A stretch of DNA of 34,643 nt, taken from contig CAYMEV010000030.1 in NCBI GenBank assembly GCA_964389675.1, forward strand, positions 1-34,643, read 5' to 3'. Below are positions 155 to 18,735 of the stretch, piece by piece. Every line of letters starts with the position of its first letter. Position 1 is the stretch's first letter. Under the pieces are notes generated by a model. The model was not told the origin of the DNA and did no database searches. It was given only the letters and a program-made list of their open reading frames with translations. Both the position numbers and the translations under genes were made by a program. This DNA comes from an uncultured Candidatus Sumerlaeota bacterium (lineage in GTDB: Bacteria > CAYMEV01).

Positions 155-511
155 ATGAGCATTAAGGAAATATATAATGATATAAGGAGGCTTAAAAAGA
201 AAAGCGTATCATTCGCCAAGGTGAGGAATATGGTCTATTCCAGCAGGGATTTCCTCACATGGGAAAGGGGCAGGTACATACATGTGCAAAGGCTGGTTTC
301 TGACCTTGACAGCCTTGAGAATATTGAAGCCCATATAATATCAGAGCTTGAGAGAAGAAGAGAAACCCTTTCCATCAGGGAAATATTCTCTTTTTTTTCA
401 GAGCAGTGCAGGGCAGAGAGGATAAACAACCCCTATGCCCTTTACTCCTGTCTGAAATACAGGGCAAACCCCTGTATCAGATATCCTTTATTTCCAAAAA
501 TTACCTTATAA
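155..511 (+). CDS. Hypothetical protein (118 aa)
   Basis: ATG-started ORF with protein-like composition and no obvious SD. Its 3' end overlaps the convergent C25 gene stop by 11 bp (501-511). No family recognised. Confidence 0.5.
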   Translation: MSIKEIYNDIRRLKKKSVSFAKVRNMVYSSRDFLTWERGRYIHVQRLVSDLDSLENIEAHIISELERRRETLSIREIFSFFSEQCRAERINNPYALYSCLKYRANPCIRYPLFPKITL

Positions 512-3500
512 CAGCCATTGCATTTGTATTGCCGGTCGAAGTCATAAGCTCAAATTCTGCTGATGATGTTTTCCACAGATATAATGCACCGCTGGATGTT
601 GAACACATAATAAGGTCATCTTTATCATAGCCTGTAAATTTTCCTGCAAGGATCCTCTTGTATGAACCGTTTGCAAGAACAGTCCATTCCAGTGTGGAGT
701 ATGCATAATAATAGACATTATCCTGATAGGTAATAACAACCTCACATCCGGAATCTCCTGCAATATCGCCTGTTGCGATGGGATGCCCCTTTGTGGGGGT
801 CGCTATAAGTATCCTGTTCCACTGCAGGCCCTTTGAATCACCGCCTTTGGAAATCCATGTATGATCTGACCTTATATCCTTTGCAAGATCAATTATTTGG
901 TATTTTTCATAGATGCTCTTTTTCAGCTCAAATGACAGGTCCTTATCAGGAATATACCTGACCATATAGATCCCTATACCGCTGAATACGCATGCCATTT
1001 CATTATAGCCATCACCGGTAATATCTGCAGCTGCAACATCTAAGGGCTTTGCCATAAGAATAGTGGTGAATGAACCTGCTGAAAAATCATACAGGTAAAG
1101 CCTTTCGATTCCATCAAAGGTGGCAATAAGCTCATCTATTGAATCTGCATCCCTGTCCATGTCAACTGCATGAAGCATATCTGCAGGATACTGGATAATA
1201 TTTGACCATGATGATGTATCGTAATTAAATCTGTAGAGCCCATATGAAGTAAAGCTGGCAATAACCTCCTTTTTAGGCCCCGCTGCAGTCTTTGCCAGGG
1301 TAAAATCTATGGTGTCATAGACTGCAATATTTGTCCACTGCATTGTATTCTGATCATAATAATAGAGTCCAAAACCTGGTATAAGAGCAACAAATTCTAA
1401 AATACCATCTCCGGTAATATCGCCCGCCTCTATCCTTGATGCAGTACTTCCGCTGAATATATTGCTCCATGTTGAACCCTTTGTTTTTAGTGTTATTGGT
1501 TTTGATTGGCTGTAACTCCATGTATATAGGCCTTCTGCTCCTTCATCTTCAATGCTGATAACTGCATTCTCTGAAACAATGTCAGGCTCCCATCTGACAT
1601 AGTCCACCCAGCCTGTGTCATCATTCTCTTCAACATACTCATCCTTATCATAGACCCACTCAAGGACATTTGTCCCTTCCTCTATCTCGTATGTCTTTTC
1701 CTGCCAGTCAACTACACCGCAGATAGCGTCCATCTCAGTGCTGTTTATATAGAAACGGAGATAATCATAATCATCCTCTGAAGATACCTTCCAGTGAAAT
1801 GTCAGTGTCCCGGGACCCGTTACCTCCGTGCTTAATGTAGTGGTTGAATTATTGCCTATTGCTCCGCTTCTTGCAGATGAACCCCCATAATAATAATTAT
1901 CGCTCTGCCCGTACCAGACATATTCCCCGCCTGCACTTGAGCTTGTGCTCCAGACAAGGGATGTATTGTCAAGTGCTTCACCCAGAGGCATAGAGTGAGT
2001 AAAAACATTTGCCTCATTGGAATAAGCTGAATTTTCAGATGCATTGTATGCCCTTACCCTGTAATAATAGCTCGTATTTGCAGAAAGGCCCGAATCCTGA
2101 TAACTGGAAACATTTGCGCCGACAGTACCTGCCTGGCTCCATGTTCCTGATGAACCGGTTTTTCTATCTACCTTAAACCCTGTCTCATTATCAGAATTAT
2201 CAGTCCAGGTAAGGTTGACCTGGCTTGATGAAACAGCAGTTGCCTGAAGGTTTGAAGGGGCTGATATATTGCTCTGCACATCTTTGTGAGCTGTAATTGA
2301 TGGATCGCCGAGGTGGTTCAGTGCAAAATGCACCCATCTGAAAGCATAGTCGGAATCAGCAGAGCCTGTCATCTGGATCTTTGCCTGGGTAAATCCCGCA
2401 CCTACAATATTCTGATATGTTGTATCCAGAGTATATCTGAATATCCAGTCATTATACTGAAAAGAAGGGCCGTGTGTATCATAGCTGTTATAGCCTATAC
2501 CGTACCTGGATGCTCCAAGGTAAGCAACAGCACCTCCGTCGGCATTCCTGATAAAAGCCTCTCCCAGGCATGGGTCTGAAGCCCCTGAAACCTCAGGGTC
2601 AAAAGCATTGGTAATACATGCAATAGTAACAACTATACCCGGAATATTGTCAAGCGCAAGAGCGCTTGAAGAGGTGAAATCACTTCCTGATTCCATGGCC
2701 CATATGGTTACATTACCATGTGTCGCCATATGGAAGAAATTCATCCCCTGGTTCAGCAAAGCTGAGAGGGTGGCAACAGAGACAGTAGCATTCGTATCAT
2801 AAAGAGTATTCTTATTATGCCCCGACCAGTAGGGTTCTATAAAATCTGAATACATGACCTCGCTCTTTGCTTCGGCATCACCTGAATAATAAAAAAGCTG
2901 GACGCCTGACAGAAGCAGGTTCTTCGGGAAGCTCGAATCTGAAGCTGCATCGATATATTCCCCTACCTTTGCCATATAATCCAGTATCTGCTGTGATTCC
3001 CTTACTGCCAGCCTGCCAATGATTACATCAGGAGATATATCTGCATTATCGCCGCTCATTTCACCGACATAGGAATCACCGTCGGCATTCCAGTCGAACT
3101 GGTCGTCAAAACAGCTGTAGAAGACATCGCCAGGCAATGTATTATCTGTCTCTTTTGCGAAGTCAAGATATCCGTACAGATTCTGGTCATGGACGCTGTA
3201 TGTTGAGCTTGTGCCTCCATCTCCTATAAGAAATACATATGTTATATTATTGTTCTGGACATAGTCATATATGCAGTTCTTGATCTTCATCTGTGTTGTA
3301 GATCCCGAATATGCTGATGTAATCTCAGATACTGTAATTATATCTGAGCTTATGCCTGCACCTGCCCTGAAGGTTGCATAACTCTGAGCTGCTGATTCAA
3401 ATGTGCTGGTAGTTATTATAAGCATATCATAATCAGTCTTCGCACGTACCGGATTCATCTTCTCAGGATAAAAAATGGCTATATCAGCCGGGTTAACCAC

Positions 3501-4100
3501 TGATCTGGATATAATATCATTAAAGACTGAATTTGGCCTGTAATAAACAGGGCTCTTTTCCTTTTTATAGCTGCATAAAACCTCGAAGGATACATCCTGA
3601 TACAATGACAGCTGGCCTGTATTTGTATCATAAATAAAGGGGTAATAGCTGAAATAAAGTATATTGAATCCCCTGGTCTTCTCTATGGAATGAAAAACAA
3701 TCCTACTGGAAGGATAAACTTTCCCGCTTTTGTATACTGAAGGATCAGCTCCTATTTCCGAAAACCTGGGTTTTGATATTATCTCATAACCCTGAAAGGG
3801 ATAAGGGATCATTTCTCCTAAAATGACTCTGTCTCTCTCGTCCAGTATGATATCCTTTACTTCACATTCTGCAGGTACAAGAACCCTGATCATATAGGCA
3901 GGGATATCAGGTTCTCCTTCCTTTGCAAGTGAATAAGCATTTGGATCGCTGTAGGATATCCTGTAATAATCCTTATACGGCTCCATGCGAACTTTATCAG
4001 CATCAAAGCAGATGTCAAAACGTACAGTTCCTGCAAAACATATATTACTTACAGCAGCCAATAGAATAAGCATAAAAGCAAACCTGGCGACTTTGTACAT
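501..4100 (-). CDS. Secreted gingipain-like C25 cysteine peptidase: signal peptide, C25 propeptide, C25 catalytic domain, FN3, jelly-roll domain, C-terminal FG-GAP-like propeller
   Basis: Signal peptide MYKVARFAFMLILLAAVSNICFA. Propeptide motifs EGEPDIP and YYPFIYD. C25 motifs YVFLIGD, DVIIGRL, catalytic His in ATHGN (~2718-2720), catalytic Cys in IACITNAF (~2616-2718 region, codon 2616-2618), LGEAF, GGAVAYLGASR and LGDPS. FN3 motif WTDNSDNETGF. SD-like AGGGGG upstream. Confidence 0.92.
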   Translation of the reverse strand: MYKVARFAFMLILLAAVSNICFAGTVRFDICFDADKVRMEPYKDYYRISYSDPNAYSLAKEGEPDIPAYMIRVLVPAECEVKDIILDERDRVILGEMIPYPFQGYEIISKPRFSEIGADPSVYKSGKVYPSSRIVFHSIEKTRGFNILYFSYYPFIYDTNTGQLSLYQDVSFEVLCSYKKEKSPVYYRPNSVFNDIISRSVVNPADIAIFYPEKMNPVRAKTDYDMLIITTSTFESAAQSYATFRAGAGISSDIITVSEITSAYSGSTTQMKIKNCIYDYVQNNNITYVFLIGDGGTSSTYSVHDQNLYGYLDFAKETDNTLPGDVFYSCFDDQFDWNADGDSYVGEMSGDNADISPDVIIGRLAVRESQQILDYMAKVGEYIDAASDSSFPKNLLLSGVQLFYYSGDAEAKSEVMYSDFIEPYWSGHNKNTLYDTNATVSVATLSALLNQGMNFFHMATHGNVTIWAMESGSDFTSSSALALDNIPGIVVTIACITNAFDPEVSGASDPCLGEAFIRNADGGAVAYLGASRYGIGYNSYDTHGPSFQYNDWIFRYTLDTTYQNIVGAGFTQAKIQMTGSADSDYAFRWVHFALNHLGDPSITAHKDVQSNISAPSNLQATAVSSSQVNLTWTDNSDNETGFKVDRKTGSSGTWSQAGTVGANVSSYQDSGLSANTSYYYRVRAYNASENSAYSNEANVFTHSMPLGEALDNTSLVWSTSSSAGGEYVWYGQSDNYYYGGSSARSGAIGNNSTTTLSTEVTGPGTLTFHWKVSSEDDYDYLRFYINSTEMDAICGVVDWQEKTYEIEEGTNVLEWVYDKDEYVEENDDTGWVDYVRWEPDIVSENAVISIEDEGAEGLYTWSYSQSKPITLKTKGSTWSNIFSGSTASRIEAGDITGDGILEFVALIPGFGLYYYDQNTMQWTNIAVYDTIDFTLAKTAAGPKKEVIASFTSYGLYRFNYDTSSWSNIIQYPADMLHAVDMDRDADSIDELIATFDGIERLYLYDFSAGSFTTILMAKPLDVAAADITGDGYNEMACVFSGIGIYMVRYIPDKDLSFELKKSIYEKYQIIDLAKDIRSDHTWISKGGDSKGLQWNRILIATPTKGHPIATGDIAGDSGCEVVITYQDNVYYYAYSTLEWTVLANGSYKRILAGKFTGYDKDDLIMCSTSSGALYLWKTSSAEFELMTSTGNTNAMAVIR

Positions 4101-4214
4101 AAAAATACCCCCTGATTATATTATATTTATATCATTGATATACATTGGTACCTATGGTACAGCGCTTTCATAGAAAAATCAATCTTTTTTACCTTTTTTC
4201 GGAAATATTTGAGA

Positions 4215-4240
4215 GGCAGGCGCCTTAACAGGCGCCTGCC
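4215..4240 (-). terminator. Stem-loop downstream of the metalloprotease gene (probable terminator or mRNA-stabilising hairpin)
   Basis: Perfect 10-bp stem GGCAGGCGCC-ttaaca-GGCGCCTGCC about 20 nt after the stop at 4260. The U-tract is weak. Confidence 0.65.
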
Positions 4241-4259
4241 CATTATTTTGGAAAAATAG

Positions 4260-7200
4260 CTATCTTATTGTAGCCATGGCATTGCTGTCACCCGCTGGTG
4301 ATATCAGCTCATAGGACGCTGTGGATGTTTTCCTTAAGTATATATCGCCATTGCTTGTAGCGCACATAATAAGGTCATCCTTTTCCCCTCCTGTGAACCT
4401 TCCGGATATTACCCTCTTGAATGAACCATTTATCAGTGTTGCCCATGATGATGTGTTATATGTATAAAAGGACAATTTCCCTCCGTATGTCATAAAAACT
4501 TCGGCACCTGCATCATCGCTGATATCTCCAGCCGCAATAAGATGGCCGGATGTTGGTGTACCCCATGTCAGCCTGTTCCATTGCAGGCCTCTGCTGTTCT
4601 TCGGCATCCATTCATGATTCCTCTCAATATCATTCAGATCAAACACCACATATTTTTCATCCAGAGTTTTCTCCATCTCCTGAAGCATGTTTTTCTCCGG
4701 TATGTACCTGACCATATAGACCCCTATACCGTCAAAAACGCATACCATCTCATAATTTCCGTCACAGGTTACATCAGCTGAAATTACCTGGGATGGCTTT
4801 GCCATCAGTATGGTAGTAAAACCGCTTGTATTGAAATCATACAGGTACATCCTGTTAATGCCTGTAAATGTTGCTATAAGTTCATCAATGCCTGAGGTGT
4901 CCCTGTCAATATTGACTGCATGCAAAAGGTCGGCAGGATACTGTATTATGCTCGACCATGAGGAGGCATCAAAGTCATACTTATAAAGGCCATAACTGCT
5001 GAAGGATGCTATTACCTGTTTTTTGACCCCGGCAGATGTCCTTGCAAGGGTAAAATCAAGGGTGTCATATGTCGCAAGGTTAGTCCAGCTGGCTGTTCCA
5101 GGATTATAGTAATAAAGGCCATACCCGTCTATCAGCGCGACAAAATCAAAGATTCCGTCCCCTGTTATATCAGCTACATCTATCTTTGATGCAGTAACAT
5201 TATTGAAGATCTTATTCCATGAAGATCCCTTCTCACTCTGCATGTTAGATTTAGACTCCGTATAGCCCCAGGTATATATTCCCTTTGCAGATGTATTTTC
5301 TATGCTTATTACAGCCTCATCCTGAGGAAACTCCATTTCAAAATCCACATAATCAAGGTATGCAGTATCAAGGTAGGATGAACCGGATGGATCCTTGACA
5401 TAGAACCACTCCAGCTGATGGCTTCCCGGCTCAATTGCATAGGCCTGCTGAACCCAGTCTACCTGGCCGCTGATCTGGTCCTGCGGTGTTCCATCTATAA
5501 AGAAGATGAAGAGATCCATATTCTCTTCTGATGATACCTTCCAGTAGAATGAAAGGTCTCCAGGGCCTTCCACAGTTGTCATAACACCCGTTTCTTCTCC
5601 ATGGGTTATGGCACCTGCCTGTCCCGCAGAGTTACCGTGGTAATAATCCCCGTCCTGGCCGTGCCAGTATGTATAATTTACTGTTCCTGTCGTATTCCAT
5701 ATAAGCTCAGCATTATCAAGGGCAATCTCCAGCGGATATGCCACAAGTGTCGTACTGTTTGTCTCGTTAGAATAAGGGGATATACCGTAATCATTATAGG
5801 CGCTTACCCTGTAGTAGTATGTAGTTACCGGCGTAAGCCCTGTATCATTGTAATATGTTGTCTCAGCAGGCAATGTTGTAATTTCTGCCCATGTCCCTGT
5901 TGAGCCTGCCTTTCTCTCAACAGCAAACCCCGTTTCATTTGTGGACATGTCAATCCAGTTAAGGTCTATCTGCGATGAGGAAAATGGTACTGATGCCAGC
6001 GAAGCAGGAGGCATAGGCGGAATATCAAATGTAGTGTCATAGGCCTCATTGGAAAAAGATGAGTCGCCTGCATTATTATATGCACATACCCTGTAATAAT
6101 AGGTCGTATTATAATTCAGCCCTGTATCGCTGTAGTATGTATAATTTGCCCCGACTGTCGTTATCTGGCCCCATGTCCCTCCGGCACCTGTTTTCCTTTC
6201 TATCTTAAAACCTGTTTCATTGCTGGAATTATCAGTCCAGCTTATGCCTATCTCAGATGATGAAACAGCCGTTGCTGACAGCCCTGATGGAGCATCTGGG
6301 ACTGACCTGTATGCAGCAATGACATGCTTTACCTCTCTGATGTCCCTGGCATTATCACCATCATTTACATCACCCGTTGCCACTCCCATGTGGTTTACAC
6401 TTGGATTTGAAAAATAGGCTACCCTTGAATGAGTCTGGCCGTCAGCAAAGTATGTCCCGCTTTCATAGGTCATTACGGAACAGTATCTGTTAGAATCAGA
6501 ACCAACCCATCTCCATCCTGCGGAGTAGCTGAAAAGCCCCGGGCCCGGCTGGACATTCTGCTGTTTGTGATGGTGAGCACCCATATTATGCCCTGCTTCA
6601 TGAATTGTCGTATATGTCCATGAAGCCTGCTGTACCCTTGATATTGCAAAAGCGTAATCCGGAAGCCCGTTAATTGTATTCAGCTGCCACCCCAGTCCCC
6701 CGGTATCCTCAACATAGGTAAACAATCCTACAAGGTCAGCACAGTATGTATCCCTCCATGTATGGACTTCATCCATATAGCCGTCAGTATATGTAAGCCT
6801 GTCCAGGTCAGTATATGAGCTTCCGCTTTCTGTATAGGTAACCTGTGCAGAATGCACCAGGGTCATTGTTACAATGGTAAGGCTGTTGTCCAGTGTCAGC
6901 TGGGCTTTCTGCATCGCCTGGGATATTGTATTGCTTATCCCGCTTTCATTTGAGCTTGCCCAGGAACTTGCTGCAGGAGTGTAAACTATCATTATATCGA
7001 TCGTTGCAGGATCTGATGGCCCGAGGTCCTTCCCATGGGGCCCTGCCTCCCCATCGACCTGAGATTCTTTTTTAGTATCTGCAATGGAGGGAGGTATCAA
7101 AACCGGCATGCTCTCAAGCTTATCCATAAATCTCATGTCAATTTCCATAAGGTAATGGGTCATGGTTTCCGGATTGCCTGTAATGATATAGTGCTCGCCC

Positions 7201-7607
7201 CTCTCAGGAATTTCTATTTCACCCAGGCTTCTGCCTTCAGTAGTGGATATTATAAGGTATCCATGCTCATATCCCTCAATTCGGGCCCTTATTGCCAGTG
7301 TGCCGTTTATATTGACACTTGTCCTGTCTATTATTGCTGTATAACGGCTGTCTGAAAAGAGATCCAGGATAACCCTGTCACCGGATTCTGCAATATCCTG
7401 AGACCTGAATTCTTCTGAGATTACTGCCTCCTTATATCTTGATACAGCGTCTGAATTGTCATAGAACCACAGGTCAGCCTCCGCAGTGCCGGAATATTTT
7501 TCTGATTTGCAGTCCTCGAAAAGGCTGTATTCAGAACCTGCCTGTGCAGAAAATGTAAAAGCCATAAAAATAAGAATTGTGCAAATAATAGTATAAAACC
7601 ATTTCAT
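4260..7607 (-). CDS. Secreted metzincin metalloprotease (M12/reprolysin-like): signal peptide, pro-region, catalytic domain, 2x FN3, jelly-roll domain, C-terminal FG-GAP-like propeller
   Basis: Signal peptide MKWFYTIICTILIFMAFTFSAQA. First catalytic strand TIDIMIVYTPAA. Zinc motif HEAGHNMGAHH (~6570-6602) and Met-turn CSVMTY. Two FN3 repeats (WTDNSSNETGF, WIDMSTNETGF). SD AAGGGG. Confidence 0.9.
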   Translation of the reverse strand: MKWFYTIICTILIFMAFTFSAQAGSEYSLFEDCKSEKYSGTAEADLWFYDNSDAVSRYKEAVISEEFRSQDIAESGDRVILDLFSDSRYTAIIDRTSVNINGTLAIRARIEGYEHGYLIISTTEGRSLGEIEIPERGEHYIITGNPETMTHYLMEIDMRFMDKLESMPVLIPPSIADTKKESQVDGEAGPHGKDLGPSDPATIDIMIVYTPAASSWASSNESGISNTISQAMQKAQLTLDNSLTIVTMTLVHSAQVTYTESGSSYTDLDRLTYTDGYMDEVHTWRDTYCADLVGLFTYVEDTGGLGWQLNTINGLPDYAFAISRVQQASWTYTTIHEAGHNMGAHHHKQQNVQPGPGLFSYSAGWRWVGSDSNRYCSVMTYESGTYFADGQTHSRVAYFSNPSVNHMGVATGDVNDGDNARDIREVKHVIAAYRSVPDAPSGLSATAVSSSEIGISWTDNSSNETGFKIERKTGAGGTWGQITTVGANYTYYSDTGLNYNTTYYYRVCAYNNAGDSSFSNEAYDTTFDIPPMPPASLASVPFSSSQIDLNWIDMSTNETGFAVERKAGSTGTWAEITTLPAETTYYNDTGLTPVTTYYYRVSAYNDYGISPYSNETNSTTLVAYPLEIALDNAELIWNTTGTVNYTYWHGQDGDYYHGNSAGQAGAITHGEETGVMTTVEGPGDLSFYWKVSSEENMDLFIFFIDGTPQDQISGQVDWVQQAYAIEPGSHQLEWFYVKDPSGSSYLDTAYLDYVDFEMEFPQDEAVISIENTSAKGIYTWGYTESKSNMQSEKGSSWNKIFNNVTASKIDVADITGDGIFDFVALIDGYGLYYYNPGTASWTNLATYDTLDFTLARTSAGVKKQVIASFSSYGLYKYDFDASSWSSIIQYPADLLHAVNIDRDTSGIDELIATFTGINRMYLYDFNTSGFTTILMAKPSQVISADVTCDGNYEMVCVFDGIGVYMVRYIPEKNMLQEMEKTLDEKYVVFDLNDIERNHEWMPKNSRGLQWNRLTWGTPTSGHLIAAGDISDDAGAEVFMTYGGKLSFYTYNTSSWATLINGSFKRVISGRFTGGEKDDLIMCATSNGDIYLRKTSTASYELISPAGDSNAMATIR

Positions 7608-7648
7608 AATATTTCCCCTTCTATTATTAATTTTTTACTTTTTTATCC

Positions 7649-7678
7649 ATTATAGCAGTTTAGTATGCATTAATGCAA
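7649..7678 (-). promoter_or_regulatory. Putative sigma70-type promoter of the metalloprotease gene
   Basis: Minus strand reads TTGCAT-18 nt-TATAAT with an extended -10 (TGcTATAAT), about 40 nt upstream of the ATG at 7607. Confidence 0.55.
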
Positions 7679-7740
7679 TCTTTTATAAAATATTTTCTTT
7701 TCTTTCCATATTTCATGCTGGTCTATTATGCATCATAAGG

Positions 7741-9798
7741 TCATTTCCCCTTAAGCAGATGGCTTACCTTTACTGATATATCTCTAATTGTAAACGGTTT
7801 CTGGATAAATGGCACACTTGCACCTGCAACACCCTGGTCTGCTACTACATCAGGAGAATATCCGGACATGAAAAGAAGCTTTATATCCGGGTGGATCTTT
7901 ATCATCTTACTCCCCAGTTCCCTGCCGTTCATTTCGGGCATTATAACATCAGTTATCAGCAGGTCCAGATTATCAGTGATCTCATTTGCCAGTTTGAGGG
8001 CTTCACCTGCTGACCTGGCCGTAAAGACCTTGTAGCCCAGCTGTTCAAGTATTGCCTTGCTTATCCTCAGGATCTCATCCTCATCTTCCACAAGAAGTAT
8101 TGTTTCACCATTCCCCAGTGCAATGTCCTCATCTTCTTCCTCACAGGCATCTTCGAGATTACCATCATATCTTGGCAAATATACCCTGAAAACACTGCCC
8201 TTGCCCGGCTCGCTTTTCACATCAATAAAGCCGTTGTTCTGCTTAACTATCCCGTACACTGTCGCAAGGCCAAGCCCGGTACCCTTTCCAACATCCTTGG
8301 TGGTATAGAATGGTTCAAACAGCTTTTTCAATGTTTCTTCGTCCATACCGCAACCGTCGTCGCTTACAGCAAGCATTACAAAATCCCCCTGCAGATATCC
8401 TGAGTGTTCTCTGCAGTAATCTTCATCAAAACTCAGCATGCCTGTTTCAATGGTTAGCATGCCTACGCCCTCTATTGCATCGCTTGCATTTACGCATAAA
8501 TTTACAAGTATCTGGTCAAGCTGTGTGGGGTCCATGTTAACATGCCATAACCCGCTCTTAGGCAGCCAGACTATGTCGATATCCTCGCTTATAAGCCTTC
8601 TGAGCATCTTCAGCATACCTTCAACAGTCTCATTCATATCTATAATATGCGGTTCAACAGCCTGCTTTCTGGCAAATGCCAGCAGCTGTCTTGTAAGTGC
8701 AGATGCCCTGTCAATACAGTGCATAATATCAACTGAAAATTCATGGGCTTTATTATCCTCGGGAAGTTCATTTAACAGCATCTCATTATAACCGAGCATG
8801 CTCTGAAGGATATTATTGAAATCATGGGCAATACCCCCGGCCAGCCTTCCCACGGACTCCATTTTCTGTGCATGGGTCAGCTGTGCATGAAGCCTTTCCT
8901 GTTCCTCTTCGGCCCTTTTTCTCTCAGTTATATCAGTAAAGACTATGAAATCAAATCCCCCGCTCGTGGACATCCTGAATTCTATCTCTTTGACCGTTCC
9001 GTCCCTGCATCTTACAGGGTACTCCATTGGCTTTATATCTGATCCGGCAGTTCTGGCCTTTTTGACCATTTCAAGCCATTCCTGCCTGAAATGCATTCTG
9101 ATCTCTTCATCAGGAAATGCATTACTCTGCCAGGCTTCAACATCAGGCGTATCATCAAGCGTATAACCGAACATGGATGTAAACTTCTTGCTTGCATAGA
9201 TCCCCACACCTTCTTTGTTTGTGATAATGACACCAACAGGGGCAGTATCTGCAAAAAGCCTGAAGCGTGACTCACTTTCCCTTAATGCCTCTTCAGCTTC
9301 AAGCCTTTCCTTCATCTGATTCTCTACCTCAAGCACCTTCTGCTCAAGCTTCTTCACAAGCCTTTCGCTGTATAGCTTCAGTGCCTCTTCCTCGTGTACT
9401 GAAGGCTTTGCAAGGGACCCTCCATGCTTCCTGTATTCCTCCATAAGCCCATTGACAGCATTTATAAACACATCCGGCTCACAGGGCTTTTCAATAAACC
9501 TGTCTGCGCCTATCTTCAGCGCGAACTCTTCATCCTGGGCACTGGTATATGTTGCAGTATATATTATAAATGGAATAATTCGCAGTTTTTCATCGGTCTT
9601 TACCTTTCTTAAAAGCTGGAAACCGTCCATTACAGGCATGAGAATATCGCTTATTATCATGTCAATCCCGCCCTTTTTTATTATATCCATTGCCTCTGCC
9701 CCGTTTGAAGCAAAGATGGTGTGGTACCCGTTTCCTTTAAGCAGGCTCTCCAGCAGATACCGGTTTTCTTCATGGTCATCAACAATGAGAATATTCAT
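7741..9798 (-). CDS. Cytoplasmic hybrid histidine kinase, REC-PAS-HisKA-HATPase-REC (CckA-like H box)
   Basis: MNILIVDD/ISDILMPVMDG receiver, PAS ending FTDITERK, H box GGIAHDFNNIL, N box NLCVNASDA, G boxes DDGCGM and GKGTGLGL, C-terminal REC with LLVEDE/ITDVIMPEMNG. Start moved from 9831 to 9798: SD AAGGAGG and an ATGA overlap with the upstream stop. Confidence 0.93.
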   Translation of the reverse strand: MNILIVDDHEENRYLLESLLKGNGYHTIFASNGAEAMDIIKKGGIDMIISDILMPVMDGFQLLRKVKTDEKLRIIPFIIYTATYTSAQDEEFALKIGADRFIEKPCEPDVFINAVNGLMEEYRKHGGSLAKPSVHEEEALKLYSERLVKKLEQKVLEVENQMKERLEAEEALRESESRFRLFADTAPVGVIITNKEGVGIYASKKFTSMFGYTLDDTPDVEAWQSNAFPDEEIRMHFRQEWLEMVKKARTAGSDIKPMEYPVRCRDGTVKEIEFRMSTSGGFDFIVFTDITERKRAEEEQERLHAQLTHAQKMESVGRLAGGIAHDFNNILQSMLGYNEMLLNELPEDNKAHEFSVDIMHCIDRASALTRQLLAFARKQAVEPHIIDMNETVEGMLKMLRRLISEDIDIVWLPKSGLWHVNMDPTQLDQILVNLCVNASDAIEGVGMLTIETGMLSFDEDYCREHSGYLQGDFVMLAVSDDGCGMDEETLKKLFEPFYTTKDVGKGTGLGLATVYGIVKQNNGFIDVKSEPGKGSVFRVYLPRYDGNLEDACEEEDEDIALGNGETILLVEDEDEILRISKAILEQLGYKVFTARSAGEALKLANEITDNLDLLITDVIMPEMNGRELGSKMIKIHPDIKLLFMSGYSPDVVADQGVAGASVPFIQKPFTIRDISVKVSHLLKGK

Positions 9799-10193
9799 CT
9801 TAAATCCTCCTTGTTTCCTTTGCAGTCCCATGAAAGGAACTGCATGATTTCATCAATAAAAGTCTCAGGGTCGATTGGCTTTTCTATGTATCCTGTTGCA
9901 CCTGCGTCAAGGACCTTTTCCCTGTCTCCGGCCATGGCATATGATGTGACTGCAATAATAGGTATGCACTCAGTTGCTGAGTCCTTCTTCAGTCTGCCTG
10001 CTACGGCATAGCCATCCATCTCCGGAAGCTGGATGTCCAGCAGTATAGCATCAGGCTGCTTCTCCCTGGCTGCTCTTATCCCATCAAACCCGTTTTCTGT
10101 AAGTATAACATTAAACCCGTGTTTTTCAAGCAGAAATCTCATCATATATGAGTTCTGCTCATTATCTTCAATAATAAGAAGTGTGTAGCTCAT
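9795..10193 (-). CDS. Single-domain response regulator (DivK/CheY-like receiver)
   Basis: LLIIEDNEQN, LLDIQLPEMDG, PIIAVTSYAMAGDREK and YIEKP motifs. ATGA overlaps at both ends (10190-10193 and 9795-9798). Confidence 0.93.
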   Translation of the reverse strand: MSYTLLIIEDNEQNSYMMRFLLEKHGFNVILTENGFDGIRAAREKQPDAILLDIQLPEMDGYAVAGRLKKDSATECIPIIAVTSYAMAGDREKVLDAGATGYIEKPIDPETFIDEIMQFLSWDCKGNKEDLR

Positions 10194-12301
10194 ACCTGTT
10201 CTCCGATTTCTTTTGGGAAGCGTATAGTAAATGTGCTTCCCTCACCGTATCTGCTCTGAACATCAATTGTACCCCCCATCATTTTTATCAGTTTCCGGCA
10301 AATTGACAGGCCCAGCCCTGTTCCTTCCCTCTTCCTTGCAAGGCCGCTGTCCACCTGGCGAAAGGGTTTGAAGAGATCCTCTAAATCTTCGTTTTTTATT
10401 CCGATGCCTGTATCTGTGACTGATATAATGTAATAGCCGCCGTCAGACCTGCTTTTAAGTTCGACGCTTCCCTTTTCTGTAAACTTTACTGCATTGTTAA
10501 GAAGGTTTATTATTACCTGTTCTATCCTTCGCTGGTCTGTTTTTGCATAGCCTACATCATCACCTGCGCTGACCCTGATCTCAATCCCCTTTTGCTCTGC
10601 CAGCGGCGTTACTATCTTTATCATCTTTTCAATTGATGAACTCAGGTCAAACTCCCCTATTGAAAGCCTGAGCTGGTCAGCTTCTATCTTGGATATGTCA
10701 AGCACATCATTGATAAGAGCCAGAAGATGCCTTGAGCTCAACTGCACCATCTTCAGCTGTTTTTCCTGCTCCTCGTTCAGAGGCCCTGCCAATCCCTGCA
10801 GCAGTATCCCGGTGAAGCCAATTATGGAATTCAAAGGAGTCCTGAGTTCATGAGACATGGTAGCAAGAAAGGCTGACTTAAGCTGGTCTGCGGATTCAGC
10901 CTTCTCCTTCTGTACCTCCAGTTCTTTTGTCCTTTCCCTCACGTGCTTTTCAAGGTTTATGTTTATCTCCTTAAGCTCAGCCTCTGCTTTCTTTCTCATG
11001 GTAATATCCCTTACAATTGCCTGCACGAGATGTTCTCCGTCTATTTCAAGAAGATTAAGGCCGACCTCTGCAATGAAAGGTGTGCCGTCCAGCTTTGAGT
11101 GGAGCCACTCAAAAGACTGGGGGCCTTCCTTTCTTGCTGCCCTTATCTTATCCTTCGCCTTATCCTCTGAATTCATGCCATCAAGCTGGATCTTGGGTGA
11201 GAATTTGTACGGCGATGCCCCCAGCAGATCATCCCGTGTGCATCCGAACATCTCTGCCGCCCTGCTGTTGCACTCTACGAAACGATCCTCGTGAATAAGC
11301 AGTATCCCGTCATTGGCAGTCTCAAAAAGCATCCTGTACATATTTTCACTCTGGCGAAGTGACTGCTCTGTAAGCTTTATATCCCTGTTGATTTCTTCAA
11401 GCTGTTCATTTCGCAGAGCCAGCTCCCTTGTTCTTAAATTGACCTGATGCTTAAACACTATGCTTACTACGGCACCTGCAAATACAGCTGCTACAGCAAT
11501 AATGCCCCCATAGGTCACCCACCTGGGCAGCAGATGTATGCTTTCTTCAGATGTCCATTTCTTGAGTGATTCATAATACACCGAATCAGGGTCTTCTTTC
11601 ATTTTTGCCAGATGCATGTCTATAGCCCTGGAAAGATCCCTGTTTTTACCCTTCAGTGAAGCATAGAACAGCCTTGTGGGATTGAATATTATTGCGGTAT
11701 TGTCAACATGAAAATTCCCATTTTTCTCTGCTGAATAAAAGCGGTTCACAATTGCAGCATCCGCTTTCCCTTCCTCAACCTGTTCAAAGATCGTCTGGTA
11801 ATCAGGCATTGAAATAAGATCGATCTTCAGTCCGAATGATTCAGCCAGTTTTCTGAAAGCAGCCTCCTGCGCTGACCGTTCAAGGACCTCCACCTTCTTT
11901 CCTTCCAGGTCCACTATGGATTTTATATTGCTTCCCTTGTGTATATATACCTGGAACCAGTCTGAAAGGACAGGCTCATTGTGAAAAGAATATATTTCAT
12001 CTCTCTCTGCAGTATATGCCACATCCGGCATCAGGTCTATCCCGCCCTTTTCCAGCCTGTCAAGCCCCTCGCTCCAGGTCCCTGTTACATATTCTAATTC
12101 CCAGCCTTCCTCTTCTGAAATATATTCGAGTATATCTATAAAAATACCCTTCGGCGTCCCGTCCTCGGTAAAGATCTTGGGAGCATTCTCATATACCCCT
12201 ACCCTTACTGGCCTGGCTCCTGATACCAAAACAGCAGCAGATATAAAAACAGCAGCAAATACTGCTAACCTGCAAAAATTATATAACAGATGCCTCTTCA
12301 T
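10190..12301 (-). CDS. Membrane sensor histidine kinase: extracytoplasmic solute-binding (family 3) domain, TM, PAS, HisKA, HATPase
   Basis: N-terminal hydrophobic segment. SBP motifs VRVGVYENAPKIF, GIFIDIL and GKADAAI. TM YGGIIAVAAVFAGAVVSIVF. PAS ending VRDIT. H box MSHELRTPLNSIIGF, NLLNNAVKFT and GTGLGL. ATG 12301 is preferred over GTG 12316 because the SD-like GAGGTG overlaps the latter; the start is uncertain. Confidence 0.92.
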   Translation of the reverse strand: MKRHLLYNFCRLAVFAAVFISAAVLVSGARPVRVGVYENAPKIFTEDGTPKGIFIDILEYISEEEGWELEYVTGTWSEGLDRLEKGGIDLMPDVAYTAERDEIYSFHNEPVLSDWFQVYIHKGSNIKSIVDLEGKKVEVLERSAQEAAFRKLAESFGLKIDLISMPDYQTIFEQVEEGKADAAIVNRFYSAEKNGNFHVDNTAIIFNPTRLFYASLKGKNRDLSRAIDMHLAKMKEDPDSVYYESLKKWTSEESIHLLPRWVTYGGIIAVAAVFAGAVVSIVFKHQVNLRTRELALRNEQLEEINRDIKLTEQSLRQSENMYRMLFETANDGILLIHEDRFVECNSRAAEMFGCTRDDLLGASPYKFSPKIQLDGMNSEDKAKDKIRAARKEGPQSFEWLHSKLDGTPFIAEVGLNLLEIDGEHLVQAIVRDITMRKKAEAELKEININLEKHVRERTKELEVQKEKAESADQLKSAFLATMSHELRTPLNSIIGFTGILLQGLAGPLNEEQEKQLKMVQLSSRHLLALINDVLDISKIEADQLRLSIGEFDLSSSIEKMIKIVTPLAEQKGIEIRVSAGDDVGYAKTDQRRIEQVIINLLNNAVKFTEKGSVELKSRSDGGYYIISVTDTGIGIKNEDLEDLFKPFRQVDSGLARKREGTGLGLSICRKLIKMMGGTIDVQSRYGEGSTFTIRFPKEIGEQV

Positions 12302-12537
12302 CCTAAGGATTCCCACCTCTCTTAGCAGATATTATACTGATATCAGGGTTATTTACTGCATAAAAAGTCACTTATTTAATTATGCATAAAAATACCTGCA
12401 AAGTCAAAAATAATTCTATTAAAGAAAAATTATTTTTATGGCAATATAACATTCCTTATCAGGAGTTTTTTCATCACTTTTTTTTTGATTTTTCTTTTCT
12501 GCTTAATTAACATATTAATAAACAAGGAGGTATAATT

Positions 12538-13152: not shown

Positions 13153-13444
13153 TCGGTATTATTACAATTTATTATTGCATTAATCTGGAAAGAAAGAATT
13201 CAGACATAAAGGCAGACAGACCATAACTAAATGACTAAAAATAATTTTTTGCATTTTTCATTTTAATTTATAGAAAATAATTCAATAAATAACTGAGAAA
13301 CGTACTGCTGCAGAAAAGCTGAGGATCCTCTCAAGAAAAACCACGAAAGACTACATTCCAAGAAATGAAAATTAATTTCTCATTTTTTTTAATTTAAATA
13401 TAATAGGCCTATGTCATAAAAACAGAAATAGGAGTTTTGAATCT

Positions 13445-13717
13445 ATGGCAAGTACTGAGTATGAAATACTCGAACATGTAGGAGTTATCAGCGAGACATC
13501 AAACGGATGGACCAAGGAGCTGAACCTTGTATCATGGAACAAGCACAAACCCGAGTATGAGATAAGGACATGGGAACATGAGAACAACAAGACTGGAAAA
13601 GGCATTACCCTGACACTCGAGGAGCTTGTCACATTAAAAGAGCTGCTTGAAGGCATGGACCTGGAGAACATTGAAGAAAACGCATATGAAGATGACTATG
13701 AGGACATAGACTATTAG
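13445..13717 (+). CDS. YdbC/PC4-family single-stranded nucleic-acid-binding protein
   Basis: Signature GWTKELNLVSWN...YEIRTW...GKGITLT. SD AGGAG. Acidic tail. Confidence 0.88.
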   Translation: MASTEYEILEHVGVISETSNGWTKELNLVSWNKHKPEYEIRTWEHENNKTGKGITLTLEELVTLKELLEGMDLENIEENAYEDDYEDIDY

Positions 13718-14123
13718 TAATTTTTAATATCAAAAGCCATATATCTGACTGAAAATTTATTAAAACACTGTTATTATCATTTTTGAAGGCATGCTTTATC
13801 AATTATCCTGAAAATTATTGCCTTCTTATAAAATACATATAGTTTCTTCATGCAAAACAATACATTGAGCTGGATGCTTTAAGGCCATTCCTCGCGGGAT
13901 GGTTACCATTTATGATATAATAAACTCCATACATTTCTGGCCTTTAATAATCAAACCATATATTCCTACCCTTAAAATAATAATCAATATGAGAAAGCTG
14001 CACAAGGTATTAAAACCTTTTTTTAACTGGAATTCTGCATAAGGATCAATATAGAAAGATTTCCTGTTAACAAGGGATAAATAAGGCATTGCAAATTTAA
14101 AGAATAGAAAATCAACAAATACA

Positions 14124-14152
14124 TTGAATAATACTGCAGTTTAGTTTACAAT
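14124..14152 (+). promoter_or_regulatory. Putative sigma70-type promoter of the SBBP-repeat gene
   Basis: TTGAAT (14124-14129), 17-nt spacer, TACAAT (14147-14152), followed by SD GGAGG at 14176-14180. Confidence 0.55.
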
Positions 14153-14186
14153 AATATTCAATATTGTTTAAATTGGGAGGTATCTT

Positions 14187-16247
14187 TTGATGTTAAAAAA
14201 TATAATACTCTTTTTATCAATAATCTTATTTGCTTTGTTTTATTCTCCTTCAGCTTATGCATTTCCGCCCTATCTATGGGCAGAAAATTTTGGCGGTACA
14301 GGAGATGATGCCAGCGAAGATACTGGAGTAGATGGATACGGCAATGTATACATTACGGGCTGGTTTTCGGATACAATTGTTTTCGGCGATAAGGAGGTTA
14401 TTTCCAATGGTAAAAATGATATTTTTATCGCAAAGTTGAACAGTGAAGGAGAATGCCTCTGGGTAAAAAGCGCTGGGTCAGCAGAAGTAGATTGTTCCTA
14501 CTGTATATATGTAAATTTCTGGGGTTATTCAATTATTACCGGTTGTTTTCAGGAAACGGTAAACTTTGGTGATATCGAGCTTGTTTCAGATGGCAATATG
14601 GATATGTTTATTGCAAAGCTTGACCCTGATGGGAATTTTCTCTGGGCAAAAAGGGCAGGAGGCGTGGAGATGGATGTAGCAGCGGGTATAATAGCTGATT
14701 CCATGGGCTATTCATATATAACCGGATGTTTTTCAGGTAATGCATTTTTCGGTGATACAGAACTGACCTGTGATGGACAAACAGATATATTCATTGCAAA
14801 GATCAGCCCCCATGGGAATTTCTTATGGGCCACCAAAGCAGGCGGGGCTGACTATGACGCAGGTATTTCTGTTGCTGTTGATACGGAAGGTAATATCTAT
14901 TGTACAGGTTCATTCATGGACACTGCATACTTTGGTGATACACAGCTGGTATCAAACGGTGATTATGATATCTTTATTGCTGGCCTGTATCCTGATGGCA
15001 GTTTCAAATGGGCCAAGGGGGCTGGTGCACAAGATGAATCTTGGGCGAAAGATTATGGAAGGGACATTGCAACAGACAGTTCCGGAAATGTTTATGTCAC
15101 TGGCGGTTTCCACAATACAACGTATTTTGATGATATAGAGCTTACTGCTTATGGCTATGAGAATGCTTCAGACATATTTATAGCAAAGCTCAATGCTGAC
15201 GGTGATTACCAATGGGTCAGGCATGCCGGGCAATCAGGAGCTGACCAAGGAATGAGCATTTTTTCCACTCCAGGCGGTGACTGCTATTTCACAGGTTATT
15301 TCCAGGAAGCTGCCACTTTCGGCAACTTTACTATAAGTTACCTCGATATGGACGGCATTCATATATTTGCTGCGAAGATGGATACTGAGGGAAATTTCCT
15401 TTGGGCAAAGGGCGGTTATGGGTATCTGATAAAGCACGGAAATGGCATAGCAGTTGATAATGCAGGATGCACATATATATCAGGCTATTTCTATGACACT
15501 GTATTATTTGATTCAATGCAGATATACTCTGCCGGAGAGCGTGATATACTTGTGGCAAAGCTTTCCTACGGAACCCCCAGTGGACCGGATGCAAGCATTG
15601 TATCCCAGGATATAGTTTTAAGCCCATCCTTCCCAAGCCCCGGTGATACTGTTGAGATTACTGCAAGGGTAAGAAACACAGGTACAGCTGATATAAATTC
15701 TGGGAATGTAAATTTTTATTTCAGTCAGATACCAGGTACAGACCTTCAGCTGATAGAAAGTAACAGTTTTTCAAATATAGCTCCCTCAGGCTATAGTGAT
15801 ATCACTATAAACTGGAATTCAGACCCGGGGCTTGAACAGATACCCTATGTCCTTACTGTGGAAATTACAGGTGTAGAACCATCAGAGTCTTATACAGGCA
15901 ATAATACAGCCTACAAAGAATTGCCGCTTCCTGTTGAGATTGGATACTTCTTAGCACTGGGTACTGGTGATAAAGTCCGAATAAACTGGATGACTGTCTC
16001 AGAAATTGATAATCTTGGTTTTAACCTTTACAGATTAAAAAAGGGGAAAATAAGCCCATTTTTATCTTCCAGCCCTGTCAAACTGAATGATGAACTTATA
16101 CAGGGACAGGGCACATCATCAGACCCTGCAGACTATTCCTATAGCGACAATATAAAGAATATGGGAAAATATATATATATTCTTGAATCAGTCTCGATCA
16201 GCGGTGAGACCAGAGAATTCAGGACAGAACTGCAGTGGATTCTTTAA
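14187..16247 (+). CDS. Secreted SBBP-repeat beta-propeller protein with a CARDB/Ig-like domain and a C-terminal LPVE-type domain
   Basis: Signal peptide ending PSAYA. Seven repeats of type (V)DxxGNxYxTGxF...DIFIAKL...G..LW. CARDB-like GDTVEITARVRNTGTAD...ESYTGNNTA. Terminal LPVEIGYFLA...INWMTVSEIDNLGFNLYR. Start is TTG 14187 or ATG 14190. Confidence 0.88.
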   Translation: MMLKNIILFLSIILFALFYSPSAYAFPPYLWAENFGGTGDDASEDTGVDGYGNVYITGWFSDTIVFGDKEVISNGKNDIFIAKLNSEGECLWVKSAGSAEVDCSYCIYVNFWGYSIITGCFQETVNFGDIELVSDGNMDMFIAKLDPDGNFLWAKRAGGVEMDVAAGIIADSMGYSYITGCFSGNAFFGDTELTCDGQTDIFIAKISPHGNFLWATKAGGADYDAGISVAVDTEGNIYCTGSFMDTAYFGDTQLVSNGDYDIFIAGLYPDGSFKWAKGAGAQDESWAKDYGRDIATDSSGNVYVTGGFHNTTYFDDIELTAYGYENASDIFIAKLNADGDYQWVRHAGQSGADQGMSIFSTPGGDCYFTGYFQEAATFGNFTISYLDMDGIHIFAAKMDTEGNFLWAKGGYGYLIKHGNGIAVDNAGCTYISGYFYDTVLFDSMQIYSAGERDILVAKLSYGTPSGPDASIVSQDIVLSPSFPSPGDTVEITARVRNTGTADINSGNVNFYFSQIPGTDLQLIESNSFSNIAPSGYSDITINWNSDPGLEQIPYVLTVEITGVEPSESYTGNNTAYKELPLPVEIGYFLALGTGDKVRINWMTVSEIDNLGFNLYRLKKGKISPFLSSSPVKLNDELIQGQGTSSDPADYSYSDNIKNMGKYIYILESVSISGETREFRTELQWIL

Positions 16248-16527
16248 TGAGGCATAACTGTGGAAATTAAAAAAGAATTATTCAGTTTAATATTTTATAT
16301 ATTATGAAAGGGTACTGAAAAGATAGAATTAGTAATTGCATTATAATAATTATACTAATTACCATAGAAAGAATATTTTCATAATTTTTTTGTAATTCTG
16401 AGAAAAATTTATTATTTTATATAAAAATATTATCGAGAACAATCCTTTCTAGGATATTTCAAGCTAACTGGATAAGCAAGTTAAATTAAAACATTTAATT
16501 GATATAAATCAAAAAGGAGACTGATTT

Positions 16528-18735
16528 ATGAAAAGAACAGCCATTTTTCTAACATTAATGTTTATCCTTACATTAAGCATTACTTTTGCCGAGTATGATA
16601 AACTAACTGCATCTGATATGATGATATCTGACAGCCAGAATCTATTTATGCAGGAAAACAGGGGTTCCCATTACTGGGATACCGGGATAGGCAATCCGGG
16701 AATGGATGACGATTACTGTTATGTATTTGCTCTAACCATTTATAATGGCGATTTGATAGCAGCAGGCCAGTTCTGGACTGCAGGCGGTATATCTGTGGAT
16801 GAATTTGCAAAATGGGACGGGGCTTCATGGTCAGGCCTGGGCAATTATGGGTCAGACGGCATGGTAAGAGCTCTTACAGTATATAATGACGATCTTATAG
16901 CAGGCGGGTACTTTCAGAATTTAAATGGCATGGCTGTAAATGGCATTGCCAAATATGACGGAGCCAGCTGGTCTGCGCTTAGCACCGGAATGGGGACTAC
17001 CAATCCTTATGTACGTGCACTTACCGTTTATGACGGATATCTTATTGCAGGTGGGACTTTTACTGCTTCCGGGGGAGCGGCAGGAGACCGCATTGCAAAA
17101 TGGAACGGGACTTCATGGTCTGCTCTGGGGTCCGGGATGAACAGCACTGTCTACAGCCTCACCGTATATGATGGCTGTCTGTATGCAGGAGGGACATTCA
17201 CAACTGCCGGCGGCGTAACTGTGAACCGCATTGCCAGATGGGACGGGACTTCATGGTCTGCTCTGGGATCAGGGATGAACAGCACTGTCTACAGCCTTAC
17301 CGTATATGATGGCTGTCTTGTTGCAGGGGGCTCTTTTACAACTGCCGGGGGCGTAACTGTGAACAATATTGCTAAATGGGATGGCAGCTCATGGTCTGCT
17401 ATGGGGTCCGGTATTTCTGCCAGCAGTGAAGTCTATGCACTTAAATTCATAGGCAATGACCTGTATGCAGGCGGGACATTCATCAATGCCGGGAGCGTGA
17501 CTGTGAACCGCATTGCTAAATGGGACGGTAGCTCATGGTCTGCCCTTGGATCTGGTATGAATTCTACTGTAGCAGCACTTGAAAACTATAATGGCTCTCT
17601 TATTGCAGGGGGTCATTTTACCACAGCTGGAGGTATTACATCAAACCATATTGCCAGGTGGTATTACAGGGACTCTGCCGCAATAAGCCTCGAGAATGCT
17701 TCGCTTGAAGGAATATGGCAATGGGATTATGACCCTTCCAGGTCACCATATATAGAATCAAAGGGTTCAAGCTGGAGTAAGATCCTTTCAGGGGTTTCTG
17801 CAACAAGGATCCTTGCCGGGGATATATCCGATGATGGAAATCTTGAACTGGTGGCCTTATTCCCTGATATGGGCCTTTATTATTATGATATTGCAGGCGC
17901 TTTATGGACAAATATTATATGCAGTACAGCCGGTTGCACAGACTTTACAATAGCCAGGACATCATCAGATGGCCCTGTTGAGGTTGTTGCAACATTTGAA
18001 GAGACCGGGATACAGAAATGGACATTTCAGGATGCCTGGACGGTTATCAACAGCATGTCGGCAGACCTGCTAATAGCCTCTGATATAAACAGGGATGAAA
18101 ATTCAATTGATGAACTGGTCCTTGCCCTTACGGGGTATGAAGGATTCCTGATATATGACTTTGCAACTGAACAGTTCTCAAGCATTATAAATATCAGCCC
18201 ATCCCAGGTCGTGCCAGCTGATGTTACAGGGGATGGTTATGATGAGCTTATATCCGTTTTTGACGGGTTCGGCATTTACCTTGTAAGGTATCTTCCAGAA
18301 AAGGGGCTTGACATAAAAACCGCCTCAGAGATCGATCCGGCTTTTGACCTTATCAGTGATATAACAGAAAACTCCATCTGGGTATCAAAAGACAGATGCA
18401 GCAGGGGCTTCCAGTTCAACAGGCTTACATGCGGTTCCCCGGCTGCAGGCCATTTTGCAGCAGCTGGAGATATAACCGGAGACAGCGGTGCTGAGGTCAT
18501 ATTTACCTATACTGACGGAAAGACATACTATTATGAATATGAAGCAAAGGGCTGGGCAACACTCGTCATGGCCTCCCTAAAGAGGATAACCTCAGGCAGA
18601 TTTACCGGAGGTGCCAGGGATGACCTTATTGCCTGCGAGACATCCACCGGAAATATTTACCTGAGGGTTACATCAACAGAAACATGGGAAAACATAGCTG
18701 CATACGGAGATACGAATGCAATGACAGCATATTAG
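16528..18735 (+). CDS. Secreted protein with seven ~46-aa WDG-repeat units (one predicted propeller) plus the shared C-terminal FG-GAP-like propeller
   Basis: SD AAGGAG. Signal peptide MKRTAIFLTLMFILTLSITFA. Repeats L(Y/I)AGGxFTTAGGxxxNxIAxWDGxSWSALGSG. The region from 17671 aligns by eye with the C-termini of both proteases. Confidence 0.88.
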   Translation: MKRTAIFLTLMFILTLSITFAEYDKLTASDMMISDSQNLFMQENRGSHYWDTGIGNPGMDDDYCYVFALTIYNGDLIAAGQFWTAGGISVDEFAKWDGASWSGLGNYGSDGMVRALTVYNDDLIAGGYFQNLNGMAVNGIAKYDGASWSALSTGMGTTNPYVRALTVYDGYLIAGGTFTASGGAAGDRIAKWNGTSWSALGSGMNSTVYSLTVYDGCLYAGGTFTTAGGVTVNRIARWDGTSWSALGSGMNSTVYSLTVYDGCLVAGGSFTTAGGVTVNNIAKWDGSSWSAMGSGISASSEVYALKFIGNDLYAGGTFINAGSVTVNRIAKWDGSSWSALGSGMNSTVAALENYNGSLIAGGHFTTAGGITSNHIARWYYRDSAAISLENASLEGIWQWDYDPSRSPYIESKGSSWSKILSGVSATRILAGDISDDGNLELVALFPDMGLYYYDIAGALWTNIICSTAGCTDFTIARTSSDGPVEVVATFEETGIQKWTFQDAWTVINSMSADLLIASDINRDENSIDELVLALTGYEGFLIYDFATEQFSSIINISPSQVVPADVTGDGYDELISVFDGFGIYLVRYLPEKGLDIKTASEIDPAFDLISDITENSIWVSKDRCSRGFQFNRLTCGSPAAGHFAAAGDITGDSGAEVIFTYTDGKTYYYEYEAKGWATLVMASLKRITSGRFTGGARDDLIACETSTGNIYLRVTSTETWENIAAYGDTNAMTAY
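17101..17376 (+). repeat. Near-identical 138-bp tandem duplication (two propeller blades)
   Basis: Units start at 17101 and 17239 and share long identical stretches such as acgggacttcatggtctgctctggg and gggatgaacagcactgtctacagcct. Confidence 0.85.

Follow-up and report, generated by a model that had tools for sequence, protein, structure and literature searches.

The question raised by the stretch of DNA studied here, 34,643 nucleotides from an uncultured Candidatus Sumerlaeota bacterium (contig CAYMEV010000030.1 of assembly GCA_964389675.1; hereafter the window), is why three exported proteins with different N-terminal passengers all end in the same domain of about 355 amino acids (aa). As contig 30, the window belongs to a genome of 3.57 Mb in 58 contigs that is 93.8% complete (G000), and it contains 16 open reading frames (ORFs) of at least 150 aa. 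An earlier note on this DNA, made from the letters alone, had read the tail as a lineage-specific sorting, docking or surface-display module. Modelled as a seven-bladed beta-propeller, the tail may in our view serve as a non-covalent, lectin-like holdfast that keeps exoenzymes on a polysaccharide surface, most likely that of the producer itself, a reading to which we give a probability of roughly 0.35. Four further readings rank behind it, in this order: a lectin aimed at external targets, a domain without specific ligand, a sorting tag and a protein-docking module. We do not think that the tail is a secretion signal.

The first carrier, encoded at positions 501..4100 (- strand), is an exported peptidase of the C25 (gingipain) family of 1199 aa, in which a signal peptide, a C25 propeptide, the catalytic domain, an fn3 domain and a jelly-roll domain precede the tail (residues 842-1199; 504..1577). 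The second, at 4260..7607 (-), is an exported reprolysin-like (M12) metzincin of 1115 aa with two fn3 domains, a jelly-roll domain and the tail (residues 760-1115; 4263..5330). The third gene, at 16528..18735 (+), encodes an exported protein of 735 aa that combines a DUF5122/Rax2-type propeller, recognized by Pfam, with the tail (residues 379-735; 17662..18732), and this is the copy that was modelled. All three tails were delimited by alignment and profile. The last 355-357 or so residues of the three proteins are colinear, the other two copies being 59 and 44% identical to the C25 copy, with 133 invariant columns in the three-copy alignment, and a profile built from the three copies recovers its own members with E-values of 1e-193 to 1e-208, far beyond chance. 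The common domain proposed in the earlier note is therefore real, and every motif listed there, including the terminal NAM, is present in the alignment. Its extent needs a qualification: a tail of about 355 aa is common to all three proteins, as claimed, but the two peptidases share a longer cassette of fn3, jelly-roll and propeller domains (51% identity over about 640 aligned columns), the spacer part of which lies at 1578..2261 (-) in the C25 gene, with fn3 at residues 613-697. The N-termini of all three proteins are positively charged and then hydrophobic, as judged visually and with a crude hydrophobicity rule, which is consistent with the Sec signal peptides assigned to them before. Equally, the Pfam and NCBIfam matches of the three proteins include no type IX secretion system (T9SS) C-terminal domain (CTD), no SLH domain, no sortase signal and no autotransporter.

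The tail is widely reused within the genome. A hidden Markov model (HMM) of the domain matches 35 ORFs, corresponding to 34 loci once split six-frame rows are collapsed: 29 intact carrier genes, one gene broken by a TGA codon and four fragments. The earlier note had named in advance, as the case that would speak against a module, that the domain exists only as the three local copies; with 34 loci this is not so. A signal-peptide-like N-terminus is found in 29 of the 29 intact carriers, compared with 650 of 1586 background ORFs under the same lenient hydrophobicity rule. The GTDB phylum of this genome holds one other genome, a congener that is 91% complete (G001), where the tail occurs at about 22 loci, while none of 39 genomes from other phyla was matched by the HMM. 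These counts bear out the claim of a paralogous, lineage-restricted module on signal-peptide proteins with many different passengers: among the genomes compared, it is present in 34 copies here, stands nearly always at the C-terminus, goes together with a signal peptide in every intact carrier and is confined to a phylum of two genomes.

Beyond assembled genomes, a word-based search of 5.8 billion proteins returned 18 matches to the tail, and 3001 were obtained at E≤0.001 when 1.84 billion cluster representatives were searched exhaustively by profile. Whole-domain, compact, single-stretch matches make up roughly the top 43 of the 150 listed among these 3001; the remainder of the list consists of generic FG-GAP repeat proteins that are matched partially and in several stretches. 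Some 15 full-length relatives, which sit on other passengers, reach just 35-45% identity with any protein encoded in this genome and probably derive from related, unbinned organisms. A metagenome scan with the three-copy alignment matched a single JGI contig, and a scan of genome contigs matched three loci of one metagenome-assembled genome together with three generic FG-GAP sequences at 24-27% identity.

What kind of domain is the tail? An NCBIfam scan of the three window proteins gave no family that spans it, and a sequence search of the PDB with the three-copy profile gave no match at E≤1. At E≤0.01, PF13517 (FG-GAP_3/VCBS-like) is matched in 23 of 27 copies and PF01839 (FG-GAP) in 17 of 27; the three window copies lie just under the Pfam gathering cut-offs and some paralogues above them. 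The nearest clusters in the ESM Atlas, to be taken as a lead only, are FG-GAP and DUF5122 families (0.83-0.85). An AlphaFold2 (AF2) model of the third window copy, calculated from the alignment of 27 paralogues, shows 28 strands that form seven four-stranded blades (predicted local distance difference test, pLDDT, 90.5; predicted template modelling score, pTM, 0.89). When structural neighbours were ranked by Foldseek and VIA-align, the bacterial lectins PLL, PHL, BP39L and CV39L came first (Z 23-24; about 299 residues aligned; root-mean-square deviation 3.0-3.2; TM score 0.55-0.61), followed by the PVL lectin, integrin alpha (Z about 20), CRTAC1 (Z 19.7) and KICSTOR chains. In PMC8023676, VCBS-like, integrin-like and tachylectin propellers are placed in one supercluster or superfamily. 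On the strength of the model and the Pfam matches, the tail is a divergent, uncatalogued, lineage-specific subfamily of the FG-GAP/VCBS seven-bladed beta-propellers, and we regard this structural identity as secure. The FG-GAP/VCBS-like nature suspected from the letters is thus upheld by the Pfam matches and the modelled blades, and the suspicion that the domain might be undescribed agrees with the lack of a full-length match to any curated family in Pfam, NCBIfam or the PDB.

The tail is strongly acidic (median isoelectric point 4.36) and each copy has one to four calcium-type loop motifs, which are among its best conserved segments. Judging from the periodicity of strands and motifs rather than from coordinates, these D-x-[DNST]-x-D-G loops probably connect strands A and B of most blades, and their sequence suggests that they may bind calcium. 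The same periodicity, again read without coordinates, makes the NAM strand appear as the innermost strand A of the blade whose strands B-D open the domain, in agreement with the proposed closure of the ring by the NAM strand. One C-D loop carries an insertion of 35-40 residues (tail residues about 212-248; window about 18295-18405), which has conserved short motifs and low model confidence and is missing from eight of the 27 aligned copies.

The passengers are diverse. According to Pfam, the 29 intact carriers include ten peptidases in four groups (three C25, three S8, three M12-like and one M14) and three other enzymes, namely a PAD_porph peptidyl-arginine deiminase, a wall hydrolase with Amidase_2, SpoIID and SH3 domains and a GHL10 hydrolase. 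Two beta-helix proteins, two MAM proteins, one DUF5122 propeller, one Lcl_C protein and one protein with SH3 only make up the remaining assigned carriers, and nine of the 29 have spacer domains only or no Pfam match. The propeller is usually preceded by an Ig-like spacer (Flg_new_2, fn3, CarboxypepD_reg or jelly-roll) and a short linker. Several carriers already possess substrate-binding modules of their own (for example SH3_3, MAM or a mannanase GBD), which suggests that the role of the constant propeller is independent of the passenger.

Its position was assessed in 50 proteins of the family proper, comprising those of this genome and some members of the same clusters. The tail ends at most eight residues from the C-terminus in 48 of them; in the other two (G000:C35:303-2393 and G000:C51:1101-3254, both -) it directly follows the signal peptide, so that the strictly C-terminal placement looked for holds in 48 of 50 cases and fails in two; the arbitrary placement that would have spoken against a module is not what is seen. 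Beyond the tail, one of these tail-first proteins has two Lcl_C domains and the other 330 residues without family assignment. Both retain the NAM segment internally, so NAM is part of the fold rather than a signal that needs a free end.

The propeller is also exchangeable. When all ORFs of at least 300 aa were clustered by their final 120 residues, three C-terminal modules were seen to recur on signal-peptide proteins: the propeller (27 proteins), an Ig/fn3-like sandwich some 100 aa long (21 proteins) and DUF5648 repeats (eight proteins). The window has an example of each alternative. An exported SBBP-propeller/CARDB protein at 14187..16247 (+) ends in the Ig-like module (about 15945-16244), assigned by C-terminal clustering, profile and AF2. 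This module, modelled with seven strands (pLDDT 90.9), is matched by neither Pfam nor NCBIfam at E≤1; the fold search gave it no match at E≤0.001 either, its weak best entries being fn3/Ig folds of a generic kind. Six-frame searches matched it 25 times in this genome and 15 times in the congener, with weak relatives in nine of the 39 genomes from other phyla. In size it is more typical of a sorting tag than the propeller is. An exported DUF5122-propeller protein at 21662..25069 (+) ends in DUF5648, as assigned by Pfam (about 24572-24988); DUF5648 repeats end eight other exported proteins of this genome, C25 peptidases among them. Two papers treat DUF5648 as a putative cell-wall-binding or auxiliary domain, present on endolysins as a putative wall-binding domain.

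On the same passenger types, the propeller is exchanged with the Ig-like module or DUF5648. C25 peptidases are found with all three tails, the tail is the sole difference between two paralogues whose N-termini are identical, and a metagenomic homologue (P0069, 47% identity) of the window DUF5648 protein ends in the propeller. Copying of the tail is equally visible: the genes for an M14 carboxypeptidase (G000:C1:93165-96548) and a C25 peptidase (G000:C1:100929-105209), 7.8 kb apart, encode an identical 542-aa tail, and at the DNA level the identity covers about 1.5 kb of coding sequence plus 300 nucleotides downstream. Unless it stems from mis-assembly of a repeat, this pair is a very recent cassette copy or conversion.

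These observations bear directly on the sorting function proposed in the earlier note. As a secretion or sorting tag, the tail would be read by a dedicated outer-membrane machine for export or attachment and might then be cleaved off, like a T9SS CTD, by a PorU-like sortase of the C25 family. The extreme C-terminal position in 48 of the 50 members fits such a tag, and so does the cargo, which resembles the T9SS cargo of Porphyromonas as generally known (C25, PAD_porph, M14; about 30 cargos). There is also a candidate sortase in this genome, a single PorU-like C25 protein of 937 aa (G000:C4:132289-135102, +; L061 8290-11103), whose gene has TolB-, Pal-, YbgF- and LpxL-like genes nearby. Its profile scores lie under both cut-offs, however (NF052324, 187 versus 450 bits; NF033707, 165 versus 420 bits), and no comparable long match was seen in the congener. 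Two members carry the tail at the N-terminus, a domain of 355 aa greatly exceeds every known signal domain in size, its surface is poorly conserved and variable in its loops, it diverges faster than its passengers, and the same passengers bear alternative modules, of which the Ig-like one of 100 aa is the more signal-like in size. Together, these properties make a sorting tag quite unlikely. Neither of the two genomes (93.8 and 91% complete) gave a match to SprA, PorV or PF18962; since the genomes used as controls were nearly silent as well, these searches do not establish the absence of a T9SS.

The envelope to which exoenzymes might be attached can be sketched from gene content. Three Omp85 matches occur in each of the two genomes, and this genome has Tol-Pal-like and LpxL-like genes and two secretins. 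With its Omp85 and Tol-Pal-like genes, the cell is diderm. In a search for a type II secretion system, one secretin locus proved to be that of a type IV pilus, its PilM and PilQ scoring above cut-off; the second locus combines GspF-, GspE/PilB-, secretin- and pseudopilin-like genes with PilT, all under curated cut-offs.

In the holdfast reading, the carriers would be exported by Sec and would present the propeller at the far end of an Ig-like, fn3 or jelly-roll stalk behind the catalytic passenger. The propeller would, we infer, bind a polysaccharide, most likely a glycan of the cell's own envelope or its matrix, and the exoenzymes would be retained, so that hydrolysis would take place beside the cell. 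Several results weigh against this proposal. The structural Z-score declines smoothly from 24 to 18.5 across 50 entries, which means that the lectin neighbours reveal similarity at the level of the common seven-bladed fold only. Of 17 colinear orthologue-like pairs, 16 have a propeller that is conserved less well than the remainder of the protein (mean 59 versus 69%), and this faster divergence is more in keeping with relaxed or diversifying evolution than with a single fixed receptor. Among the 27 paralogues, conservation is concentrated in strands B and C and in the calcium-type A-B loops, while the C-D loops and the D-A and B-C loops, the putative ligand face, are variable; no single conserved binding site or surface patch is therefore evident, with faces assigned from the integrin topology and secondary structure rather than from coordinates. 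The constancy of the tail could moreover be explained by duplication from a shared origin without a shared ligand.

Some of the same results would suit a lectin that is directed not at the cell's own surface but at external polymers or the surfaces of other cells, such as detritus or prey walls, in the manner of a carbohydrate-binding module or of the propeller lectins in umbrella toxins. Diversified targets would go with variable loops and a divergence faster than that of the passengers; sugar-binding lectins are the nearest folds, and the Foldseek list includes an umbrella-toxin lectin complex (9oee). The passengers include wall-lytic enzymes and many peptidases, and one of the alternative modules is the DUF5648 seen on endolysins. 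Against this, a single family is found on passengers with very different substrates, several carriers already have SH3_3, MAM or GBD modules, and the similarity to lectins is one of fold, without a sequence match in the PDB at E≤1. We consider an external target possible but doubtful.

Faster divergence of the propeller, together with conservation limited to fold-determining positions, could equally be expected of a domain without any specific ligand, a stable, acidic, calcium-dependent cap for folding or solubility, or a spacer, that has spread by cassette duplication. Cassette copying is clear from the M14 and C25 genes with their identical 542-aa tail and from the longer cassette shared by the two window peptidases, and truncated and fragmentary copies are present. 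Yet a domain of 355 aa has been maintained across the carriers of both species, in 17 colinear orthologue-like pairs, which implies selection, and the more distant metagenomic set at 35-45% identity retains it too. We therefore hold a domain without ligand to be unlikely.

Finally, the propeller might dock proteins to one another, assembling the enzymes on a scaffold or on each other as in a cellulosome. Beta-propellers are common interaction platforms, and a constant module on many enzymes follows the logic of dockerins. A scaffold with serial large receptor repeats was sought by comparing fragments of the 321 ORFs of at least 700 aa with themselves by BLAST; no scaffoldin-like protein was found, the top results being propeller-repeat or TPR proteins, although a non-repetitive partner would escape this search. 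Nor was a conserved neighbouring partner gene seen, with no systematic neighbourhood analysis made. Such a docking function is very unlikely in our judgement.

The holdfast reading can be extended to the alternative tails. About 30 exoenzymes, in catalytic families that parallel the T9SS cargos of Porphyromonas, might be held on the outer membrane by a lectin-type propeller that binds the cell's own lipopolysaccharide or capsule, and the Ig-like tag and DUF5648 might route paralogues elsewhere, amounting to a three-way C-terminal address code of a diderm secretome in a phylum-level lineage without detectable T9SS; this extension is speculative and rather unlikely as a whole. Exoenzymes that carry the one constant propeller account for roughly 1% of the genes in this genome, and paralogous enzymes bear either of two other tails. 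Detrital protein is the presumed food of uncultured sediment lineages, and the surface retention of large exoenzymes in diderms outside the Bacteroidota is poorly understood. If the propeller is a holdfast, it would offer a defined, expressible module of 355 aa with which to test retention at the surface or targeting to polymers, and a marker from which the lineage's surface degradome could be predicted; if it is only a fold spread by cassette copying, it would represent an ordinary case of modular secreted proteins.

Other genes of the window deserve mention. Two histidine kinases, at 7741-9831 (-) and 10190-12316 (-), lie between the protease genes and the other genes for exported proteins. 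A receiver-PAS-HisKA-HATPase hybrid makes up one of them, and a periplasmic SBP_bac_3 sensor domain of the amino-acid-binding type is part of the other; amino acids may be the cue on which they control the peptidases nearby. At 27310-31347 (-), a protein of 1345 aa with guanylate-cyclase, AAA_16 and TPR domains, of the STAND type, belongs to a family that has 33 members in this genome according to the C-terminal clustering.

Among known systems, the T9SS CTDs of Bacteroidota (type A, PF18962/TIGR04183, and type B) are similar in that a constant C-terminal domain is carried by about 30 Sec-exported cargos, which include C25 peptidases, PAD and an M14 carboxypeptidase. Those domains are Ig-like sandwiches of 70-100 aa that are cleaved by PorU, whereas the tail described here is a propeller of 355 aa that can be N-terminal, and the three window proteins have no match to PF18962/TIGR04183 in Pfam or NCBIfam. 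CWB2 of Clostridioides difficile and SLH are binding modules found on about 30 surface proteins with varied enzymatic passengers, at either end. They are analogous in function only, as non-covalent anchors to wall polysaccharides that are shared by many proteins; folds and sequences are unrelated, the tail matches neither in Pfam, and they serve monoderm walls, whereas Omp85 and Tol-Pal-like genes are present here.

The closest comparisons are those of fold. The lectins of the PLL/PHL/BP39L/CV39L type and PVL are the best structural neighbours and of similar size (about 340-400 aa), but they are only 9-16% identical to the tail and stand alone, whereas the tail ends enzymes; the two are alike in fold only. 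With the FG-GAP/VCBS propellers at large, a group that includes the N-terminal domain of integrin alpha, CRTAC1 and ITFG-type proteins, the tail shares seven blades, loop motifs resembling the calcium-type D-x-D-x-D-G and the similarity to integrin alpha. Such propellers are common behind secreted peptidases outside this lineage: in 9 of 40 sampled metagenomic proteins they follow an S8, M12, M36 or M43 peptidase, and most of the 40 sampled partial matches carry FG-GAP or FG-GAP_3, so the kind of module is not new. A full-text literature search, taken at the level of listings and abstracts, returned no paper that assigns a sorting or anchoring role to an FG-GAP propeller. The difference from other FG-GAP/VCBS propellers is that one subfamily, whose window copies score under the gathering cut-offs, is reused on about 30 proteins of a single genome. 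What is new is this subfamily, the scale of its use, with some 30 carriers here and about 22 loci in the congener within a phylum of two genomes, and its exchange with two other C-terminal modules.

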